DNA of 64,000 nucleotides from Eledone cirrhosa (taxonomy: Eukaryota), in assembly GCA_964016885.1 (NCBI GenBank), contig OZ024740.1, positions 360,034,001 through 360,098,000 of the forward strand, read 5' to 3'. Under the pieces are notes generated by a model. It had not been told where the DNA came from, made no database searches, and was given only the letters and a program-made list of their open reading frames with translations. Within the stretch, counting starts at the first letter, position 1, and every line of letters begins with the position of its first letter. The translations under genes and the position numbers were made by a program. Shown here in pieces: positions 1,775 to 38,941 of this stretch.

Positions 1775-4700
1775 TTACCCGAAAAACTTGCATAAACCTT
1801 GCGGGCCATCGAACTGTTCTTCCCGATTTGGTGTGCCGGGGTTGTGCAGAATCTGTGGTGTTTGTTGGAGAGGATGAGTCGGTTCGAAGAACGGAGGGAA
1901 CTGAATTGAGTCCTCCTCGATGAAGGCTTTTTTTAACCGATCGATTGATACCGTATTTCGTTTACCTCTAATATCGAGAACGAAATACTTGGGTTCTCTT
2001 TCGATAACTTTGTAGGGCCCGGAATATGGTGGCCGAAGTTGAGATGGTATCCCATCATTCCTCACGAAAACATGAGTCCACGTGTTGATGTCTTTGGGGA
2101 CATGTGAAACGACGTTCTGTTGTCTGGGGCCTGCAGGTGACAAATGCGACATGGATGTCCGTAGTCGGTGCACATATTGTGCTGGGTCAGGAAAATCTTT
2201 TCATGAAACAGGTTCGATCATCTGCCCAGGTAAGGTGAGTGCTGTGCCATAAACGAGTTCAGCCGGAGTATATCCAAGTTCCTCCTCAACCGTGGATCGT
2301 ATACCAAGGAGGATGAGAGGGAGATGTTCCAGCCAGTGAGAACTGTCTGTAGATGCTTTTATGGATGCCTTGAGTTGGCGGTGAAAGCGTTCGACCATGC
2401 CATTTGCTGCAGGGTGGTAAGCCGTAGTGCGGGTGTGTTTACACCCGAGGAGACGAGTCAGCTCGGTGAAAAGGTGGGAATCGAACTGTCGTCCCCTGTC
2501 GGTGGTGATTGTTGCGGGTGTGCCAAAACGCGAAACCCATTGTGATATCAACGTTTTGGCGACCGTTTCTGCCGATGTATCAGATAAGGGCCAAGCTTCG
2601 GGCCATCGCGAAAAACGATCGACGCAGGTAAGCAGATATGTATAATTCTGCGAAGGTGGCATAGGTCCCACGATGTCAATGTGAACGTGCTGAAATCGTG
2701 CGTCAGGTTGCGAAAAGGAACCGATTGGTGATTTTATGTGCCGGTAGATTTTCGCTTTTTGGCACGCGACACAGCACTTGGTCCATTCTCTGGTATCCTT
2801 GTTGATACTGGTCCACACAAAACGGGTCGATATCAGCTTTTGAGTGGAGCGAATACCAGGATGTGACAGAGTATGCAGAGCAGAGAAAACTTCTCGCCGA
2901 TGTTTATGTGGCACATACGGGCGTTGGTGACCGGTGGAGATATCACACCAAATGTGGGCCGTGGACGATGGTAGCGGAACATGCTGAAATTTCAGAGATG
3001 ACGAATTCCGGAGCTTTAGAAGCTCTTCGTCATTCTCCTGGTCAACTGCTATATGTGCCAGATCAATTGTAGCAGTGGTGTGGATAGCATTGATCTGTGT
3101 GCGTGAAAGTGCATCGGCTGCTAAGTTGGTCGTCCCTTTGATGTGGCGTATATCCGTCGTATACTGCGATATGAAGTCGAGGTGGCGGATTTCTCTCGGC
3201 GAGTGGCGATCCGGCTTGGTGTTAAATGCATATATGAGTGGTTTGTGGTCGGTGTATATGGCAAAATTTGTACCTTCTAGCATGTGTCGAAAATGCTTAA
3301 CGGCCAGGTATGCCGCTAATAATTCCCGACTGAATGTGCTGTATTTCGTTTCTGCGGGTTTTAACCGCTTCGAAAAGAAGGAAAACGGTTGCCATATGCC
3401 ACCAACAAGCTGCTGCAGCACACCTCCAACTCCCGAATCGGATGCGTCGACGAGTAGACACAGTGGGGCGTCTGGTTTTGGATAAACCAACATAGTAGCG
3501 TTGGATAATGCTTTTTTCAGGGCATCGAAAGAGGCGAGTTGCTTTTCATCCAGGGCAATGTTCGTGTTTTTGCAAGTTCGATGATGTAGCAAATCTGTGA
3601 GCGGTTGCGCTATCTCAGCGAGGTGGGGGTATAAACCTTCTATAGAAGTTCGCTAGCCCGAGATATTCCCTTAATTTGCGGAGAGATGTGGGTGGTGGAA
3701 AATCCACGATGGCCTTGACTTTCTCGGGCAGGGGACGAATACCACCCTTATCGACGATGTGGCCGAGGAAATGAAGGGAAGCAACTCCGAACGAACATTT
3801 GCTCGGGTTGACAACAATACCGTATTTTCGCAGACGTTCGAACAGCAGATGGAGGTGTTGGTGATGTTCTTCGTCCGAGTTACTGGCGACGAGTATGTCG
3901 TCTATGTAGGCATAGACGAAAGGTAAACCTCTGGTAACCATGTCTATAAACCTTTGGAATGTCTGTGCTGCGTTGCGTAAACCGAAAGGCATACGCAGGA
4001 ATTCAAACATTCCGAAAGGTGTAGTGAGTGCAGTCTTCGGGATGTCCGCAGGTTCCACTGGGATTTGGTTGTATGCTCGCACAAGGTCGATCTTGGTAAA
4101 AATGCGAGCTCCATGCAGCGAACTAGAAAAATCCTGCAGATAAGGAACTGGATAAGCATCGCTGACAGTGCTTTTATTCAGCGATCGATAATCACCGCAA
4201 GCTCGCCAATCGGTCTGTAGCGGTTGTCTCCCTTGTTTGGATTAACATCTAGACGGGAAGTAGAACCCTTTCTGTAACTTCCGGTCAGAACCCTATAAAA
4301 CTAACAACTTTAAGTTCTCACTCTCTCATTTGGCTCTGCCTCTCATTTGGCCTTCCGGCGCCTGGCTGGCCTTAGCCAGGCGTCCTCTGCCAGCCGCGTT
4401 TGCCTGGCAATCAAAACGGTAACGACTAACTTTGTTTCATTCTATCATCTATTTCTTTGACATGGTAACTATACTATCTACCATTGTTAATTAAATATTA
4501 TACACACAAACCATGTCTCGTTTTGTTACATTCATACTACCCAGTACTCTCGCTACAGGTCGATGATTTTTTGGGGACGCAGTGTATCGGCGAGGACCAG
4601 TTGCTGCTGGACAGACGGATAATTCCAAGGTCGAGCAGGTGCTGGAATTCCCGCTTGACGGCCTTTAAACGATCAGGTGGTAACCTTCTGGGTCTCGCAG

Positions 4701-5334
4701 CAACAGGTGGACCGCTGGTTTTGATGTGGTGGGTGATTTCGTGCTTGATCGGCTGGTTATGGAATAATGGTCGAGCGACGTCCGGATATTCTTTCAGGAT
4801 AGTGCTGTGAGGAGTCGTCGTTGTGAGCATAACAGTTGGGCTTACTGTGGCCATAAGAGCGGCTATACCGCGCACACTAAGCTGTGTGGTGCTGTCGACC
4901 AGTTGTCTATTTTTAATGTCTACCAGGAGACCGAAATGATGCAGGAAATCGGCTCCTAAGATAGGGGTCGGCAGTTTAGCAATGATAAATACCCACTGAA
5001 AAGTGCGGCGTTGTCCTAAGTTCAGTGTTAGGGACTGTTCACCGTAGGTTGTAATGGGTGAGTGGTTAACTGCCTGAAGACAAACTGGTGACTCTTTCCT
5101 TTTTCTTGAAGTGCTGGAAACAGGGATGATGCTGACTTCGGCGCTGGTGTCAACCAGGAAACATGTGCCTGTTACCCGATCGCAAACGAAAAACAGGCGA
5201 CTTTGTGGGTGCGAGCCAGGAACTTCCGTCGCGTTCAATTCCTGGCTGTGTCGTTTCCCTGACTGGATGCTGAAAACGAGCACGGGATTATGCATTTTTG
5301 CGCCCGTTTTCCGAACTTTCGGTGGTACCAACAC
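1775..5334 (-). pseudogene. pol: pol polyprotein (protease, RT, RNase H, integrase), disrupted
   Basis: PR FLVDTSAEVS (DTG altered to DTS); [14 protein letters not shown]; RH VDASD, YTDHKPL, ADALSR; [28 protein letters not shown]. Lesions: solo-LTR insertion 4216-4557, frameshift near 3620, in-frame stop at 2201. Confidence 0.95.
4216..4557. mobile_element. Solo LTR of an unrelated family inserted in the RT coding region
   Basis: Ends TGTAGCG...CGCTACA with a 4-bp TSD GGTC (4212-4215, 4558-4561). Removing it restores the frame [20 protein letters not shown]. Confidence 0.9.
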
Positions 5335-6110
5335 GTGTCCTGTGAGTTGCGGGTAGCACTGGGGCTTGGGGACCGTCTTCCATCTCGACGCGATCGGCTG
5401 CTGCTTCGGCGCTGGGTACCAAGCGATAGGGCCTGTATTTGTGTTGTGAGGGCCTGTATCTGCGCTGCTTGCTGCGTCATTAATGAACGCAAGTCCGAAA
5501 TTTCTGAAGAACTGGTTGCTGAAATGAAAGGATTGGTAATGGGAGCGGCTGGCGTCACCGTCGATACTGTTGCATATCTGTGTAGTACGTCGGCTATTTT
5601 GTTCGCTAGCTCCGCCAGTTCCTCAATGGATGTGGATTCCCGTGTGGCAGCGAGGACCACTTGCGTGTTGGAGGGCAGACGCTGGAGAAAGAGCTGCTTG
5701 AATATTTTGTCGGGTAGGCTTTCATCTCCAAGAAGCTGCTTCATTCTACGCAGAAGCTGAGAGGGCGTTTTATCACCCAATTCTTCCGATATCAGAAGCT
5801 GGTGAAGTCGCTTTTGTTGGGACTCGGAAGTTCTGTTGATGAGTGTCGTCTTAAAAATGTTGTACGACGATGGTAGTGCCATAATGAGATCGCGGACGAC
5901 GTTCGTGATCTCTGGCGATAGGGAACCGATGACATATGACAGTCGAGACGCATCGCTGTTTACTCGGTTAGAAGAAAACTGGGCCTCTATATGATAAAAC
6001 CATAATGCAGGGTCGTGTGTCCAGAATGGAGGAATTCTCAAAGTAACCGCCGCTTGGAATGCCATGTCGATAGATGTGTTCGCCGCTGGATTCTGTTCTG
6101 GGAGAGCCAT
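5235..6110 (-). CDS. gag: Gag protein of CsRn1-like retrotransposon (291 aa, ORF intact)
   Basis: LRIPPFW..DPALWF..IEAQF, LGDKTPSQLLRRM, LFLQRLP, and the CWYHRKFGKRAQKCIIPC knuckle. A G-GGA-AAC slippery site at 5259-5253 leads into pol in the -1 frame. Confidence 0.92.
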   Translation of the reverse strand: MALPEQNPAANTSIDMAFQAAVTLRIPPFWTHDPALWFYHIEAQFSSNRVNSDASRLSYVIGSLSPEITNVVRDLIMALPSSYNIFKTTLINRTSESQQKRLHQLLISEELGDKTPSQLLRRMKQLLGDESLPDKIFKQLFLQRLPSNTQVVLAATRESTSIEELAELANKIADVLHRYATVSTVTPAAPITNPFISATSSSEISDLRSLMTQQAAQIQALTTQIQALSLGTQRRSSSRSRRDGRRSPSPSATRNSQDTCWYHRKFGKRAQKCIIPCSFSASSQGNDTARN

Positions 6111-6198
6111 TGTGTTCGCGGAATTCTCAATTCTGTTTCTGTTTCCAAATGCAGTTCGGTTGGTGAAGCTGGTTCAAAGGAAGGCCGCAATTCGTTTA

Positions 6199-6211: not shown

Positions 6212-6786
6212 TGTAGTGGTTGTATGTGTATAATGGTGAAATATTGATAAGGCATGTGTATGCCGGAAAAATGAATAAGTAGGTGAATGGATTCATTATA
6301 AAAATAATTTATTTCACGAACTTAATTTGTGGTTATGTACACATCATGCTTTACTACATACAAAAATGTTTATGTTGACAACTGCTACGAGCTGTTAGAA
6401 AATAGAACCAGGATACATTTGTGGAACTGGTGTGTTAGAATGAATATGTTTGTGTGAGTGTGTGTGTAGTTCATCTGACACAGTAGGTCTCTCTGTGTGG
6501 TGTCAGACCAGCTTTCTGTCCCGGGTTTCCCTTGACTCTCATATATATATAATGTTGCGGTGGCTAGAATGATAGACATACCGCAACAGGGTTTCTACGT
6601 CCTTCGGTCAATTTGACTTTGGCTTGACCTAGCTGAGGTCGTAGGTCAAAGGGAGGCGATCAATCACTTTTTGACAGGACAAAGAAAAAACCTTTCTTTG
6701 GCGCCTTTCGTCGTGATTTTGAACAGCGAGAATTCTTAGATTCGGTTTCGAATCTAGGCTTGGAGAAGGAAGTGTTATTTGTTACA
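6212..6786 (-). repeat. 5' LTR of CsRn1-like element
   Basis: Direct repeat of 559-1135; abuts the PBS. Confidence 0.95.
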
Positions 6787-7813
6787 GCGGCGATGAAAGC
6801 ACTCGTGCTGACTTGGGGGCACAGTGTAAACCCTTCCAAGACAGCTGTCAAATTTTACACCAGGATGTCTTTCAACAGCCTGACCTGACTTTCTTCGTAC
6901 CAAAGTGTTCGACCATATAAAGTAGGATGGAACCTGGGGGCACACAATTGTTTGCGGAAATGTATCAAACTGGCAAAGTTTGAAGAAACCCGTCAGAGTG
7001 GTCTCTTTCGGATTGGCGGCGGTTTGGTACGTAAAGTAAACCCTTTGCCCATTTTCCAAATGTACCGTAAGCTGTACGATGGCGGGATGCCGTTGGTGTA
7101 GGGGTAAACCAAATAGGCGCCAAAAAGCTTCATTGCTACTGATGTACCGCCCCGCCAGGTATTCTGTGACCTCGTCCCTGCTATTTTCAGCTTGAAATGC
7201 GAACATTGCGGCATCAGAGCCCTTATTTACATATTTGCATATGTATTTTATCGACTTGACGAAGTTGCAAAACTCAACGTTGATGTGGGCATTGAACATC
7301 TTCAAAAGAAGCGGGCAGTAAGGGACCACCCATCTATTGTCAACTTGACCTCCCCTTACTGTTGTTGTGAAGCCACCGTTCTCGGGCCGTTTCCGCCTGT
7401 ACCCGTCGCAACCAGTCTGAGTCTGGTCAACAAATTTTGGGGGGTATCCCTTACTGCACGACCCCCGTTCAGACACGTGTGATGCTCATTAGGACGCGAT
7501 GCACACGGACCATGTTAGCTCTGACGATGTCATGTAATTCCTGGTCAGTTGCTGGGTTAGGGATTTCAGCCGAAATGAAGCTGTCTATGGCATTTGAATT
7601 GATTTTATCAGCGAACCAAATCAAAATGTGAGCATGTGGCAGTCCTCGATTTTGCCATGTGAACATGTCACATTTTACAGCCCCAAATACCTGACCCTTT
7701 TTGATTAAAGCCATGAGTTTAGCCAGTTTCAGTCTGAACACTCTGGCAATGAGGTCATGTCTGTTCGAATAATTTTGCCCAGGAAAACGTTCACGGGTTA
7801 CATTCCGATTCAC
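6787..7813 (-). pseudogene. Helitron Rep (HUH) domain fragment
   Basis: HUH motif PHAHILIW and YxxKYxxK (KYICKYVNK); frameshifted between ORFs 7469-7813 and 6775-7476. Confidence 0.9.
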
Positions 7814-9338: not shown

Positions 9339-10150
9339 TCATTGTAGAGCCTCTTGGTAGACAACATTCTTAACTTCTCTTTTTGTTGAGTGAATGAAGA
9401 GTCCCCGCGGACTTCCTACTCGGGAACATCCAACGTACAGTTGGCCATGTGAGAATGCCTGTGCACTCAGATTCCGTCCAACCACTTGCATCGATTGTCC
9501 CTGTGCCTTGTTGATGGTCATGGCAAAGCTGAGTTTGATGGGATATTGCAATCGCGTAAATTCGTTGACGACGTCAGATGGACTGAGTTTTACTGGAGGA
9601 ATTAGAACGTCTGTGCCATCAGCTGGTCCGTTCAAGATTGTCGCAACCAGAATTTTGGACGATTTAATGATCATTCGTGTTCCGTTGCACATTGTTGGAG
9701 AGTCCAAGTTCCTTAGCATCATAACCGGCGCACCAACCTTTAGCTGCAGGTCGTGAGGCGGAAGTCCAGGAGGTGTTTGACTGTTGAGGAATTTAATGGT
9801 AAACATTGTGGCATCCTCAGCATTTTTGTTAGTGTCAATAGACTTAAATGAAACTGTATTCCCTGGAAGCGGATCAAGGAGTTTCTTGTTGATTTCGTCA
9901 ACTGTCACATTGTGTGGTGCCAAAATAGCCCTCTCTCTAAGCCAGTTGTGGTCACGAAACCGATTTTCAATGTCAGGAAACACAGACTCCGTTAGTTCGT
10001 CCACATCAGACACGTAGTTTCCAAACGGAAGACGGATATGCCCTTCAGCATCTGCATCTATATGTCCATTGCCGACATCAAGAAGCTGCGCCGAAAAAGT
10101 TAAATAATCTTGATCGCCATGTACCTGAACTCTCATGTTGGTAGTCAGAT
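9339..10150 (-). pseudogene. Helitron PIF1-like helicase, C-terminal part
   Basis: LTTNMR, ERAILAP, GLPPHDLQLKVGAPVMMLRNL, CNGTR, FAMTINKAQGQS, FSHGQLYVGCSRV, NVVYQEAL*. Confidence 0.92.
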
Positions 10151-10480
10151 GAAGTTTTTCAATTTAAACAGTCATATCAATCCCAGTACTAATTTTTCAA
10201 AGCTGGCACTTACTTTATTGATCTCTTTTGTCAAGTTGCACTAAGTTATGGGATATTAGCACAGTTACAAACCTAAACATGGTAACACACACACATATAC
10301 AAACCTAAACATGGTAACACGCGCACGTAGTAGTTTTACACGATCGAACAAACCGTAAATGATTTTTTATTGCAGTAGAAGTCTGCTTAGAACGCGCAAA
10401 AAATCAAATCTTGTAATCGAGCGTTCACGATACTGGGGTGACGTTAATGCAACCCATTTAAACTGATTATTGTAGTTAAA

Positions 10481-31445: not shown

Positions 31446-32941
31446 TTGTAAAGGTTTGCTCTTTTCTGAACCCTCTTTTGAGTTTCTGGATATGTCCCCT
31501 TTCTGCTTCCATCCCACACCATGAGGACAGGTATTGCAGCATTGAATGGAGACTGCAATATATTTTTCAAACAGGCTCCTCTACCTAACGTTTGAACATG
31601 TCCCTTGTTATTCTGCACGATGAACGATGCAGTAGGACTGCCTTTATTGTTTCTCACCACATTGCAGTGTTTTGTGGGTCTTATTCCTGCCAGTCACCAA
31701 TTGATACTTTTCTCAGACCTGTGAAGACTAGGCTTTTTTGGAGGTGGCCTTTACTTGCCTCATCATAGCTACATCACTGGGTTATGATAGTTTTCTTGGA
31801 AGCTAACAGTTTCACCCATTGTTTTATCTCCCCTAGTAGTTTGCTACTATTGGTCCAAGTTTCTTCTTCATCTGGCAGGAGCCCGCTTATATTACAAATA
31901 ACTATCATATCTGGAGGACATATTGCTATCTGCCATCTGCAACCCATTCTCTATCAGAGCAGCTCAGCCAAGAATCATCATAATAATTTTATTTTAGATA
32001 TTTTTCTGAGATGATGTTCTAGATATCAGCTTACTAATGAAAAACTTATTTTATTAAATTCCTCAAAATGTTTGGATTTTTTCAAAATTATTTGAAGCAC
32101 ATAGGCAGTGTGTTTCATTAGAAATGCGGTAATACCACCATCTGGTGAGTCACTTCAATTTTTTCATGATTTCTTTCTGTAGAGGCAGTTCCTTGGTTAT
32201 TTCACATTAATATTCTTTTATGTGGAGAGGGAAGAAAGAAGAAAATATGAGAAGTTTATATTAGTTGTGTTTTTTCCTATTTCTCTGCCTTCATCTTTCT
32301 TTCAGTCTCTCTCACTCTCTCTCTCACTCTCTCACACACACTCACATTCATACACATACTCAGTTTAAGAGACTAACAAACTCATAAACTTACATACTCA
32401 TACAATGTGTTCTTTTAAACTTGCATACAAGTGTATGCTTGCTTTCTTGCTTGCTTACAGTTGTCCATCGAAATTTGATCATGACCATTTTTACATTCAA
32501 TTGTGGGTCCTTTGGTGACGATACAACCCAATTCTTGATGTGCAATTTTATCCGTAAACAAGACATATGAATGTTTGGTTGGAGAGGTAAGGGGATTTCC
32601 CCCTTTCTTACTTCTCTTGATACTGTTGAGTGTGTTTCTCCTCCATATCTTCAGCCCCCTTCCAACTGAGAGAATGCCAAAGTAAAAGGTTGGTAGTGGT
32701 GTTTTTCGTTTTTGAAGGGTTGATGTTACTCCTTTTCAAAATGGTGTGCATCTGATCTTTGAAGTGCTCTTTTGGTCCTCCAAGCCAGGCAATGAGCATA
32801 GTGTAGCTGACCATCAAGTATCCTACACAGGAAACACATATCAGATAAGTGCACTACATGTCAGAATCATTTTAGATGATACCTGTATAGTATGGCTTCC
32901 ATGCTGGTGATATTAGTTCTATGGAGGATTTCTGTGTATAC

Positions 32942-33211
32942 TGTGCGTATGGTGTGGTGTGCGGTGGCCGGAAGCTGGTGAGTGCTCGACCGGAAGAGTG
33001 CTTGACCGGAAGGGTGCTTGGCTGGAAGGGTGCTCGACCAGAAGGGCTAGCAGATCGGTCTCTTTCTAGTGGTGATCAGAAACGGTGTGGACACGAGTTT
33101 GGCAGCTCCCGGGTGTTAATGAGTTGGACGCACGTGGAAGAGGAGAAACCAGCCATGGGATTTAGCGGCGCCTATGAAAAGCGGTAAGTGAGAAAGCTTT
33201 TTCTAACCACA
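32942..33211 (+). repeat. 5' LTR (270 bp)
   Basis: Repeat of 36843-37128; internal roughly 18-bp subrepeats GACCGGAAGGGTGCT. Confidence 0.93.
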
Positions 33212-33337
33212 AGCTATTTTGGCACTGGAAACTGAGATCTGATTGAAAAAAAAACTTTCTCGAAAACAAAGCTACTGGAAAAACAGAGAGGAGTCTGTTA
33301 TTTTTTTCTTATTACGTACCGCAAGACAAATTAGGAT

Positions 33338-34096
33338 ATGGCGACGAGACTACGAACAAGCGAAGCAATTAGGGCATTTACCGGTGAAGGCGATGTTGTC
33401 GCTTGGCTGCGAAAAGTCCGGCTGGTCGCAAGCTTACAGAAAATAGATGTGACTGGCCTCATGGCACTGTACCTCGAGGGAGACGCATTGGTACTCTTCC
33501 TTGAGTTGGATGAACACAGCCAAAGGGATGCGCAAAAGATTGAGAGGCGCATGATGGAAGCGTTCGCGGAGGGACCGTTAGCCACTTTTGCTAAGCTGGC
33601 AAGGATTAGATGGAACGGTGAACGCGTTGACATTTTCGCAGCGGAAATACGGCGATTGGCCATGTTGGCTGGATATCAGGTGGAATGCGAATGCACGGTG
33701 CAGTTGGTGTTCATAAATGGATTTCCAGACAACATAGCAGTGAAACTGCAGCAAGTCCCGGGTTACAAAGAAATGGAGATGCGTTCACTGGTGGAGCAGG
33801 CCTGCATCATAGAAGAAAATGCCAAGAAGAGTGTCGCGGCGATAGCAACTAGAGAGGCTCAAGATAGCTGGCAGTGAAATCATGAAAGGGAGGCAACCAC
33901 GGCACGCGGTCGCCCGCGAACGTTTAGAGGTTGCTGTTTTAGGTGCCAGGGCCCGCACATGGCGAGAGACTGTAGAGAGTCAAGGCCGGAAATAATATGC
34001 TACCGGTGTAAGCGACCAGGCCACATCACTACTAACTGCGACCAGGGAAACGATCCAAGGGGAACTACTGCGCCAGTAGTTGCCCCTTACGAGTAG
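33338..34096 (+). pseudogene. gag: gag with premature stop at 33875
   Basis: Reading through the TGA gives CFRCQGPHMARDC and CYRCKRPGHITTNC knuckles, ending at TAG 34094-34096. A G-GGA-AAC slippery site lies at 34045. Confidence 0.88.
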
Positions 34097-34099
34097 TGG

Positions 34100-36829
34100 C
34101 GCTGCCCGTGGTGGAAGTCTTCGTGAGGGGATAGCAACAGCGAGCCCTTGTGGACACGGGCTGTACGACGACACTGGTGACCGCGGGGGTGGCGCAGAGG
34201 TGGAGAGGGAAGAGCAGCATAAGGAAAATTGATATGGGGAAGGAAAATAAGGCTTTCTGCCATTGTAGTTGACAACGTGGTGGATGGGATCGGTGTGGTT
34301 ATGGATATGGATGCAATTGGCCGTCTAGGAGGCGTCACAGTGAACAATGTCGGTGTGTCGTTTGGCGGCGCTGCGTCGGTATGCGCTGTGAGTACGCGAC
34401 AGGAGAACCAGGAGGCCCATGAGGAGAAATACCCCGTTTACACTGTGCAGGACAAAGACTTCAAGGCCATGTTTGATGGACAGCGATGGGTTATTGAGTG
34501 GTACTGGAAGGGAGAACCACCAACACTGAAGACCAAAGTGGGCTGCTATCAACACACATTGAAGGGAGACATTAGGAGCGAGTTCAAGCGAGAGGCAGAG
34601 AGATGGATTGAGGAGCGCATGCTGCTTCCCTGGAAAGAGGGTGAAGTGCGGAGTATTGCCGTTAATGGTGGTGGTGCAACCCACGAAGAACAAGGTGAGG
34701 CCGGTACTGGACTTTTGGGAACTGAACGAGCACGTGTCATGCCACACGGGTGGCGAGGTCACGGATGTCTGTTGGGAAACCCTGCGTAAGTGGAGATGCA
34801 TGACGGGGGGTTCTTCAATCGTAGATCTAAAGTCGGCATACTTGCAATTGCATATAGATGAGAAGCTCTGGCAGTATCAGCTGGTCAGGTATAAGGGCCG
34901 GACATATTGCCTGACCAGGCTCGGTTTCGGGCTGAGCTCCGCACCGAAGATCATGGCGGCGGTCCTCGAGACCATCTGGGAAAGGCCGACAAGATGAAGA
35001 GGGCCACTAATTCCTACATTGACGACATTCTAGTGGACGAGTCTGTAGTGTCGGCGGCAGAGGTCATGAGCCATTTACAGGGGTATGGACTGGCTGCAAA
35101 GCCGTCAGAAGCGTTGGAGGGAGGAGCCGCGCTGGGACTTAGGCTACAGCGAGACAGGACGGGCGTCTTGGTATTCCAGAGGGGAAATGAAGTTCCAGAA
35201 CTGGGCCCAAGTGGTGTGGGGAAAGTTGGTGGGTCACTACCCGATTGCTGGGTGGCTCCGGACGGCATGCAGCTATGTCAAGAGACGAGCGGGAGGGATG
35301 ACTTGGAGTGACAGAGTGGGAGAGAGGACGGTGGCCATGATGCAGGAGATCATGAAGAGGGTGAAGGCCGACCACCCAGTGCGGGGACGCTGGTATGTTC
35401 CCAAATCGCAGAGCAGGACCGTATGGTGCGATGCCAGCAGCATAGTGCTGGGTATCACGTTGGAGATAGGAGGTGTGAGGTCGAGGATGCAGCCTGGCTT
35501 AGGAAGAAGAACGATTGTAACCACATCAATGTGGCCGAACTGGATGCGGTGTTGAGAGTGGTGAACCTCGCCCTGAGGTGGGGACTGCGCACCATCGAGA
35601 TACGCACCGACTCGGCTACTGTACTTGGATGGGTGTGATCAGTGCTCACCAGTGAGAAGAGGGTGCGAACGAGAGGGGCGGCGGAGATGCTGATAAAGCG
35701 CCGCCTGGGAACTTTAGGAGAGCTGGCCACCGAGTTCAACCTGAGGCTGAGTGTAGTTTTCGTGCCCTCAGAGAAAAATAGGGCGGACATCTTAACTAGG
35801 GTAAAGAAAGCCTGGATGGAAGCGCCGGAGGAGGTAGAAGAGGAGATAGCTGCCGTGTGTCGGCTGACTGAGTCGGATCTGAAAGGGTTGCATGACATGC
35901 ACTACATGGGAGTGGATAGGACCCTGTTCCTAGCCAGGAGAATCGACTCGGATGTTAACAGACACAGTGTTCAAAGGGTGGTTAGAGGCTGCATCCGATG
36001 TCAGTCCATTGATCCCGCCCCGGGTGTGCACGAAGCAGGAAGCCTCCCGGTGGATCGTGACTGGAAGCTATTGGCGGTGGATGTAACGCACTACCGACAG
36101 GGAACGTACCTCTCGATGGTCGACTGTGGACCAGCACGGATGGCAATATGGAGGGAGATGAAGACTGGAACGGCCGAGGAAATCATGCGGATGTTGAGAG
36201 AGGTGTTCTTGGAGCGGGGCCCTGTGGACGAACTGCTGATGGACAACAGTGCAGCGTTCCGCTTGAAGGCGCTGAGGGAGATGCTCGATGGATGGAAGGT
36301 GGACCGTTTCTTCAGAGCAGCGCACAGGCCGAGCGGAAATGGAATTGTGGAGCGACACCACCGGACGATCAAGGCAATGGTGGAACGGGGCCACATCTCA
36401 CCAATGGAGGCAGTGTTCTGGTACAACATGTCCCCTCGGGTGGGACAGGTTGAGGAATCGGTGCCACACAGAGCAGTATTCAGATACGAGTGGCGGCACC
36501 CGTGCATGCCACCACAACGGCCAGTAGGGAGAGAGAATGCATTCGTGCAGGTGGGTGAAGAAGTCTGGGTTAAGCCCCCAGATGCACGTTGCACATCTCA
36601 ATGCGTAAGGGGAACGGTGACGGCCGTAAATTCCCAGAACAATGTGTCCGTGGACGGAGTACCACATCATGTCCTGGATGCCCGTAGAATCACTGTGTCA
36701 ACGGACTCCGAGGAAGAGGAAACCCAAAGTGCCGCCCCAACACTGTGGAGATCGCAAAGAAGTCGCAAACCACCAACCTGGACAGCAGACTTTCATATGC
36801 AGAAGGACGAGGGGGAAATTGATCCTTGA
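34100..36829 (+). pseudogene. pol: pol (PR, RT, RNase H, IN), frameshifted
   Basis: PR LVDTGC; RT RPVLDF, VDLKSAYLQ, RLGFGLSSAP, SYIDD; RH VWCDASS, HINVAEL, RTDSATV, NRADILTR; IN H..H..C..C, AVDVTH, LMDN, NGIVER. Confidence 0.9.
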
Positions 36830-36842
36830 GATCAGGGGGACA

Positions 36843-37128
36843 TGTGGGTATGGTGTAGTGTGCGGTGGCCGGAAGCTGGAGAGTGCTCGACCGGAAGAGT
36901 GCTTGACCAGAAGAGTGCTTGACCGGAAGGGTGCTTGGCCGGAAGGGTGCTCGACCGGAAGGGCCAGCAGATCGGTCTCTCTCTAGTGGTGATCAGGAAC
37001 GGTTTGGACGCGAGTTTGGCAGCTCCCGGGTGTTAATGAGTTGGACACACGTGGAAGAGGAGAAACCAGCCATGGGATTTAGCGGCGCCTATGAAAAGCG
37101 GTAAGTGAGATAGCTTTTTCTAACCACA
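36843..37128 (+). repeat. 3' LTR (286 bp, one extra internal subrepeat)
   Basis: Repeat of 32942-33211, followed by the TSD TATAC. Confidence 0.93.
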
Positions 37129-38941
37129 TATACAATCATGTCTCACCAGGTGACTGAAAAGATCTTCTGAAGACACTGAATATGAAAGGTCTCAAGAGAC
37201 TTAATATTCTGGATGTATATAGTCCATGTCTCACACCAATACTAGAGTGTGGAAATATATACTGGTCAGTAGACGATAAGAACCTTGAGATATATTTTGA
37301 GAAATATTATCTTTCTGAGCCTTCCAAAAGCTAGAGGCCTGTCTGAGGCAATTTGATATCTCACTTAGTGTGCAGTCACTGGATATTAACTGCCTAGATA
37401 TTTGAATTGGGACGGTGTAATCAGTTGTTACTGTTCTTTTGAAATAATTGATAGATCACCTCAGTTTCTGAATATAAACAATCAGACCCATCCTGATTAT
37501 ATGATCCTTGTGTTTAATTATAAACAGGACATATTATATCATAGTTGTGTTCAAACTGCTATGCTATGAAGAACACCCTCACATCATTCTTGTTAGGAGC
37601 AAGCCTGTAGATCTGCTGTCTTATCAATTCACCACTAATCCTTCATTCTGTGCAAGGAAACCTATGCACTCTGCCTGACATGGTGATATGTTACCTTCTT
37701 TGATACTGAGGTCTTGTTGTCCACATACTTTGCATGAACTTGATATAGTTGCACGTGGCAAACCTCAGGACATCTTCCACAATATGGTGAATACAATCTC
37801 TTTATGTACTACAGTGAGTCTCAAAGATTTCATTTTGGGCAGATTCAATGTCAAGCAGGGCCAGTTCTGTCAGAAGTAGGCACAGACCTCTAGAGAAGAG
37901 AATGTTACCACATTAAGTTTCTTCACTGGTGCTGTGCAAACCCTGCTTCTGGGTGGCCTGCAGCTAAATAGAACTCAATCTCATCAACTGGTGATCAAAG
38001 AAATAGATGGTTCCCTGCATTGCTCATGTATGGTGAATATTATGAATGTCGCACTGTCTAACAATGATAAAGTCAATCTGGTATCAATGACCAGAATGCA
38101 GCTGCTTCCAAATTATATTTGTTTTTCTATTGGAATCGCATATTGGTCATAGCAAGTTAACACTGAGCAGATATGGACAAGAGATAGGTGTCATTGGCGT
38201 GCTTCTTCCTGACACCTTGAACAGCCAAATATGTTGTCTCAATTAGAATGGCCAGTGCTGACATTGCTTGGATGGCCAAAGACTTTGTCTCAGTTAGAAT
38301 GGCCAGTACTTACATGGGTACTGCAGTAGTTTGTATGAGTTCATTGAGTTCTTCATAGAACTGCTCTTTGATCTCCTCCATATGCCTCATGATTGGTGCA
38401 TATGCCCTGATTATGATCACATAGCCACAGTCAAGATGAATCATAGTACCATCAACCATTTATTAACTCCATGTGGAAGAGAGTCACAAAGCTGGAGGTA
38501 ACAGATCTTGACTGTAAAGCCCATGGCAGATGTCTGGTCAGATAGAAGAGTTTCACTTGAGGCTGCTATAGTGATGCAGTTCCTTCCTCTGATACAGAGG
38601 CTGTTCATCACTGTAGGCTGATGGCAGAGAGAGAGGAAAGGGAGAGGAAATGACCAAAAAACTTGATGGGTACTTTCTTTTATTGATTCTGGAAAGGTGG
38701 TAAGTTTGCTCCAGTGGAATTTGAACTCAAAACATAAGATATCAGAAAAATAGCACAAGGCATCTATCTGATGCTCTAGTAATTCTGACAAATGACAGCC
38801 AATAACATCTACTATTTTAACAAAAGGGAGGATGCATTAAATAATATAGTCTTAAATATGAGATGTTTGATCAAAGATCTGCTTAATCAGAGTTGACCAT
38901 AACCTAAGCAACAACAACTGGTATACATTATTAACAATTAA

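Follow-up and report, generated by a model that had tools for sequence, protein, structure and literature searches.

Tf1, an element of S. pombe, starts from an 11-nt primer, obtained by an RNase H cut of an RNA duplex. More generally, the relevant passages of two reviews list priming from the tRNA 3' end, from a bipartite site, from a half tRNA and by self-priming; the tRNA 5' terminus is not named in these passages (PMC5371799, PMC3592414). The closest precedents for the site described here are the half-tRNA mode of copia and Ty5 and the self-priming of Tf1: an internally cut tRNA is already used by copia and Ty5. In both copia (Drosophila) and Ty5 (yeast) a host tRNA is cleaved internally, and its 5' part, with the new 3' end, acts as the primer, as we infer for the present elements; there, however, tRNAiMet is cut in the anticodon arm, and the end of the fragment alone is paired (PMC5371799, PMC3592414). 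Here, the match is to nucleotides 1-12 of tRNA-Phe, the proposed cut is in the D-stem, the whole primer would be paired and RT precedes integrase; complementarity to the anticodon arm of tRNAiMet was not found at the site. Tf1 likewise features a short, fully paired primer, derived from the natural 5' end of an RNA and cleaved at the LTR boundary, where the duplex stops (PMC3592414, PMC5445492), but its partner is the element's own RNA, while here it would be a host tRNA, in trans. In Ty1 and Ty3, tRNA parts beyond the 3' 18 nt pair with the element RNA, yet priming occurs from the native CCA end (PMC5371799), for which no conserved complement is present here. Conserved, non-canonical sequences at the edge of the 5' LTR are also described for the fungal elements GalEa (Conserved Hairpin Site) and FunCo1 (internal tRNA-Lys site); these are copia elements, where the sequence is a palindrome or matches an internal tRNA region, not the tRNA 5' terminus (PMC5445492).

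No report of the site, or of the lineage carrying it, was found in the literature searched; Repbase, subscription journals and supplements, which lay outside the search, may already note it. The motif strings matched no retrotransposon paper, DUF7047 and PF23088 do not occur in the papers searched, and a term search found neither PBS nor tRNA in two surveys of LTR elements in molluscs and annelids. Since annotation pipelines, such as the one outlined in PMC13524379, seek 3'-end matches alone, the site may have been overlooked so far.

The window, i.e. the whole stretch of 64,000 nt of Eledone cirrhosa DNA analysed, contains on its plus strand a decayed LTR retrotransposon of 4187 nt (32942-37128), which features the usual hallmarks: paired TG...CA LTRs, a target duplication and a polypurine tract. 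The 5' LTR (270 nt, 32942-33211) and the 3' LTR (286 nt, 36843-37128) terminate on the same base, and differ by 12 mismatches over 270 aligned positions and by one 16-nt indel. The element is flanked by the target-site duplication TATAC (32937-32941 and 37129-37133); 5-bp duplications are also found around other copies. A gag frame (33338-34096) contains zinc knuckles (zf-CCHC, E 4.8e-06, supported by homologues) and one premature stop; pol (34060-36829, start approximate) encodes protease, RT, with YIDD at about 35015, DUF7047 at the thumb position, RNase H and a DDE integrase, and is broken by several stops and frameshifts. Rfam returned no match for the element. Its family is large, with 1224 candidates in the 3.0-Gb genome, 40 of which were scored.

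The polypurine tract, a G run with a short spacer (36835-36842), adjoins a short hairpin, TGATC-loop-GATCA (36820-36834). A perfect stem of at least 5 pairs is present at this position in 34 of 41 rows of the clade alignment, versus 3% in shuffles, and compensatory changes are observed across the clade (loci L074-L136 and the window). The hairpin may mark the plus-strand primer.

The sequence AGCTATTTTGGC (33212-33223) directly adjoins the 5' LTR. The preliminary description, made from the sequence of this stretch, had reported a spacerless 12-mer, pairing with the 5' end of tRNA-Phe with one G:U, and both statements hold: the boundary is fixed by the LTR ends and by the TATAC flanks, and the tRNA-Phe(GAA) genes of the host begin with GCCGAAATAGCT. 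This 15-mer has 247 matches in the genome, and ARAGORN calls a tRNA-Phe at five of the six host loci examined. The exact complement of nucleotides 1-12 of the host tRNA-Phe is AGCTATTTCGGC, which is found, perfect, in 21 of the 30 best family loci, the remaining 9 differing by one base; the 12-mer is thus conserved across the family, a check that had been proposed along with the claim. At position 33220 a C is read throughout the contig depth, in all four runs of one study. Because of these contig reads and of the 21 perfect copies, both the G:U wobble and the TGG at 33220-33222, generated by a C-to-T change, are private to the window copy.

Genome-wide, the LTR end followed by the perfect 12-mer occurs at 514 sites, versus one for a reversed control. 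When the variants of other hosts are placed after the LTR end, 17 sites are found in the same genome, versus 38 for the control, i.e. background; in one further pattern count the control gave 1530, likely a repeat. The combination of LTR end and 12-mer spans several families of this genome, with unrelated U5 and leader sequences, including one (L143) with a Pol just 36-53% identical to its nearest homologue. Paired LTRs, flush with the 12-mer, were found in 8 of 17 stretches fetched from this genome; in the others the second LTR is damaged or absent, or pol is missing. The LTR/site junction of the window does not fold better than its shuffles, as evaluated by minimum free energy (z 1.16).

To avoid selection by motif, relatives were fetched by Pol alignment alone: 80 of 152 relatives were kept, yielding 66 metagenome loci, grouped into 48 families. 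The exact 12-mer follows ACA, within unrelated flanks, in 15 of the 66 loci, for a pattern fixed beforehand. A gag start is present in 42 of the 48 families, and the other 6 were left out of the site counts. In 38 of these 42, AGCTA-NNNN-GGC is found flush with the LTR end (0.24% in shuffles), and 40 carry at least 7 of its 8 fixed bases (7.5% in shuffles), this pattern having been chosen after inspection of the data. The remaining two families read AGCTATCACGCG and AGCTATCGCGCA. ACA directly precedes the site in 37 of 40 families; in most metagenome contigs the LTR end is itself inferred from this ACA, and paired LTRs confirm it in three. The share of the commonest base falls from 1.00 at site position 12 to 0.44 at position 13, so that the block ends where the mature tRNA begins. 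All this holds over a wide divergence, Pol identity among tree rows being 34-93% (median 49%). No relative was found in the set of viral contigs searched. Deviant sites are present in L089, L121/L130, L124 and L135, reading AGCTATCCGGGC, ...CACGCG, ...CGCGCA and AGCGAACGCGGC, respectively; they may point to other tRNA isotypes or hosts.

From the place of the site flush with the LTR, its exact complementarity, its conservation, the way its variation mirrors tRNA-Phe acceptor stems and the lack of other primer sites, the minus-strand primer of this lineage is probably a 12-nt piece from the 5' end of tRNA-Phe, with a cut predicted in the D-stem. Priming from a short 5' fragment had been suggested from the window alone: it is now strongly supported by conservation in 42 distant families, and came through the three refuting observations set beforehand (an unconserved 12-mer, a host tRNA-Phe with a different 5' end, an ordinary TGG site near the LTR). 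As to the last one, a TGG-starting site near the LTR is found in 0 of 40 families, which confirms the original remark on its absence and led to the rejection of canonical 3'-end priming. According to the proposed mechanism, the 5' strand of the tRNA would anneal to the site, with help from the zinc knuckle of Gag; cleavage between U12 and C13, at the end of the duplex, would yield a 3'-OH, and DNA synthesis would begin on the last LTR base. Plus-strand strong-stop DNA would then copy the primer and run off its 5' end, and for this reason the site would stay fixed at 12 nt and, after transfer to a new host, could be recopied from the tRNA present there. With all 12 nt of the primer paired, the model would account for the missing spacer, for the sharp distal boundary and for the lack of any other site. 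In none of 40 families can tRNA nucleotides 13-16 (CAGT) be paired with the LTR end, which would need TGTN in 37 of them: priming at this place therefore requires a tRNA 3' end at U12, an internal position.

A possible trace of the last step is found in one copy (L153/L362, G000:C2:388.03 Mb), composed of an LTR, the exact 12-mer, about 95 nt of reversed RNase H sequence, a forward pol and a second LTR. Its junction features a 6-nt microhomology, corresponding to the last six bases of the site, as might be expected for a remnant of plus-strand strong-stop DNA ending at nucleotide 12. It is, however, a single event among the 15 junctions found in its family, and joining by microhomology does not need a free DNA end at that point. 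Further fossils of this kind were sought at 22, 2, 3 and 15 sites, which turned out to be ordinary junctions of several families, plus a few gag-less sites.

The cut is the step for which two agents have to be weighed. The likeliest one is the element's own RNase H, of archaeal type, acting on the RNA duplex as in Tf1, with a host nuclease being about equally probable. The model of this RNase H (pLDDT 88) is closest to archaeal RNase HI from Halobacterium (Z 17.4, rmsd 1.8, 123 aligned residues) and to the Sulfolobus tokodaii enzyme (Z 15.4, rmsd 2.4, 126 aligned), versus a Z of 8.8 with Ty3. The S. tokodaii enzyme cleaves double-stranded RNA, as stated in a review (PMC9719913). Together with the precedent of Tf1, this makes the element's enzyme a fair candidate for cutting the tRNA; the shared fold is itself no proof of activity on double-stranded RNA. 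Alternatively, a host nuclease would cut the D-loop, giving fragments of about 14-16 nt, and trimming of the unpaired tail would then leave just the 12 bases that are paired. Short fragments from tRNA 5' ends have been recognised as a class (PMC7515703), the internal primer end of Ty5 is credited to host RNase P (PMC5371799), and in folding models on the leader a free 12-mer binds better (-16.1 kcal/mol) than an unmodified, whole, folded tRNA (-9.9 kcal/mol). Against a host nuclease, the strict 12-nt length and the use of one isotype over very distant hosts fit better with a cut encoded by the element and defined by geometry, and the element does encode an archaeal-type RNase H. Trimming by the host is a possibility of less than even weight; it differs from the explanation favoured above in the cutting step alone, and its share is included in the confidence given to the 12-nt primer.

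Other uses of the tRNA would leave it intact. Its 5' strand could merely serve as an anchor, in packaging or dimerisation, with the freed CCA end priming at a second site, a bipartite arrangement that the preliminary description had also considered. In the window's family, the leader (33224-33250) is loosely complementary to the T arm and 3' strand of tRNA-Phe: the likeness to the complement of the tRNA 3' end, first noticed there, is real (12 of 20 ungapped matches at 33220-33239), and it is confined to this family, the leader being unconserved in the clade. The predicted pairing of this leader with the tRNA 3' arm reaches -17.9 kcal/mol, with 0 of 200 shuffles as good and 1.6% of 2000 dinucleotide shuffles matching it, and the U5 of the same family pairs with the D arm (q 0.02). 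Over the clade, however, leader pairing beats shuffles in just 2 of 20 families, the window's being one of them, and pairing of U5 with the D arm in 3 of 45; none of 40 families has a TGG within the first 8 nt, complements of the CCA end are scattered and no longer than 5-9 nt, and a start of priming 14 nt further in would give the cDNA a long terminal tail. A bipartite leader, a longer pairing extending from U5 into the D arm and a displaced CCA-end site were accordingly all rejected for the clade, and the anchored, intact tRNA appears very improbable. In the window's family, the contact between leader and 3' arm may be auxiliary, or due to chance over 20 tests.

Even less credible is a self-priming of the Tf1 type, where the site would pair with the LTR RNA of the element itself. 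The U5 of the window's family contains GAGATAGCT, which could bind the site through six Watson-Crick pairs and additional wobbles; the motif is missing from another family of this genome. When up to 300 nt upstream were tested, pairing of site and LTR rose above shuffles in 3 of 42 families (q <=0.05), which is the chance level, and never included 8 anchored pairs. Self-primed sites are moreover expected to vary freely with their LTR, which the observed ones do not. The check for self-priming, proposed at the outset, thus came out negative, and this mode was discarded for the clade.

A putative splice donor, GTAAGT, is located within U5 (33184-33189), and an AG, a putative acceptor, immediately precedes the gag ATG (33333-33334). 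In families of this genome (L329-L345, L075; 33184-33334 in the window) the site lies between such a donor-like motif and the AG, so that a spliced mRNA would lack the primer site. The donor-like motif is found in most families of this genome, and in 3 of 39 metagenome families.

The four variable letters of the site (positions 6-9) face the acceptor stem, while positions 1-5 face U12-U8 of the tRNA and positions 10-12 face C3-G1. The main variants are TTTC (13 families), TCGC (10), TCAC (6), TCTA (4) and TCCC (2). A scan of public contigs for tRNA-Phe, with 80 of 125 matches listed in one part, yielded at least 53 different 5' ends, at least 18 of them of the GCC type, for which 256 are possible; ARAGORN calls a tRNA-Phe at 9 of 10 loci checked. 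TTTC, TCGC, TCAC and TCTA, which together cover 33 of the 42 families, each complement exactly the 5' end of a tRNA-Phe gene among the matches listed. For the other 9 families no matching end is present among these matches, and in two families the last three letters are GCG or GCA. Where the variant is TCTA or TCGC, the tRNA that matches it contains a non-Watson-Crick acceptor pair: here it is the 5' strand to which the site is complementary, and the 3' strand is not copied.

These observations bear on a further alternative, in which the 12-mer is a signal that a protein recognises (integrase, Gag), or the target of regulation by a tRNA fragment, and its likeness to tRNA-Phe is secondary. The primer being deduced from sequence, and a few families deviating at positions 10-12, such a role has some room. 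Invariant positions, however, map onto tRNA nucleotides 8-12 and 1-3, and variable ones onto 4-7; the variants correspond to tRNA-Phe ends that really exist, another primer site is absent, and a silencing target would be expected to be lost, not kept. We regard this alternative as unlikely, if slightly less so than the bipartite one.

The tRNAs with matching ends belong to unrelated records (archaeal, bacterial-bin and viral), not to the hosts of the elements: for this reason the variants are established as real tRNA-Phe ends, not as tracking the host. For host tracking there are indirect signs, namely the enrichment of its own variant in the Eledone genome, sharing within record sets and recurrence on the tree. 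Among pairs of different families from one record set, 19 of 38 carry the same variant, versus 188 of 903 overall (p 0.0018), the pairs being non-independent and one family being counted in two sets. On a quick tree, composed of clade members only, with three families dropped for low coverage, the variants need at least 15 changes, 7 being the least possible; well-supported branches force three changes each for TTTC, TCGC and TCAC. On the same tree variants cluster by descent, too. Two arrangements of tRNA-Phe genes were also observed. One bacterial-bin contig contains five identical genes (L220-L222, L240, L241), 3.7 kb apart, and may be eukaryotic DNA in the bin; in the Eledone genome, tRNA-Phe and tRNA-Asn genes are repeated in tandem, about every 1.26 kb, over a long array at G000:C4:117.36-117.54 Mb.

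Named protein relatives are found in crustaceans, a sea spider, a cephalopod and a sea hare; after clustering at 50%, 1314 representatives have scores below E 1e-30. The domain order, PR-RT-RH-IN, is gypsy-like and matches Ty3/gypsy (Metaviridae). RVT_3 and DUF7047 are matched in all 35 members tested, while RNase H of the Ty3 type (Pfam RT_RNaseH, RT_RNaseH_2) is found in none of them at E 0.01. Markers of BEL/Pao (Belpaoviridae) are Peptidase_A17, DUF1759 and DUF5641: they are absent from all 35 members, and a BEL search of the genome gave one weak match alone. The integrase profile scores best on retroviral integrases. In the Atlas comparison the clusters of the lineage itself come on top, followed by gypsy, retroviral and BEL clusters with similar scores. 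Pol is about 950 aa long, and in the model of a homologue the RNase H strands start about 15 residues after the thumb helices. A non-Ty3 RNase H is also reported for Odin retrotransposons and lokiretroviruses (PMC9040795) and for plant Tat elements, which carry an additional RNase H (PMC4408406); these, however, feature a tether and a second RNase H (PMC9040795, PMC4408406). The single RNase H modelled here, directly behind the thumb, places the lineage outside the dual-RNase-H type of Odin elements and retroviruses. A sister group (P0251, P0255, P0259, P0262, P0267) has the same DUF7047 RT-RNase H in one long ORF (1340-1420 aa), with a different, longer integrase; it is absent from the Eledone genome, where the best identity is 24-31%.

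Taken as a whole, and only tentatively, these data suggest that a large, unclassified lineage, compact, with a DUF7047 thumb and a single archaeal-type RNase H, captures the 5' strand of tRNA-Phe and cuts the D-stem itself. This would be a fourth mode of priming, the chemistry of Tf1 in trans, with a site rewritten in each new host and thus recording host switches. If true, a lineage matched to tRNA nucleotides 1-12 adds a new way of priming beside the tRNA 3' end, the half tRNA and self-priming, and a very short 5' tRNA fragment gains a defined job. If the element's RNase H does cut the tRNA, it would represent a programmable cutter of RNA duplexes, along with a primer-making step. In metagenomes, the four variable letters may also act as a barcode for the host of an element.

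Other repeats are present in the window. On the minus strand, positions 2201-6173 contain a second element, which we take to be of the LTR type, with gag, RT and integrase ORFs and an ordinary gypsy look; ORFs at 10-483, 6775-7485 and 9339-10163, also on the minus strand, are presumably pieces of a Helitron Rep-helicase. From 13493 to about 15700 a tandem array is found, with a 42-nt unit, open in several frames, for which 47 overlapping 300-nt copies show 97-100% identity.
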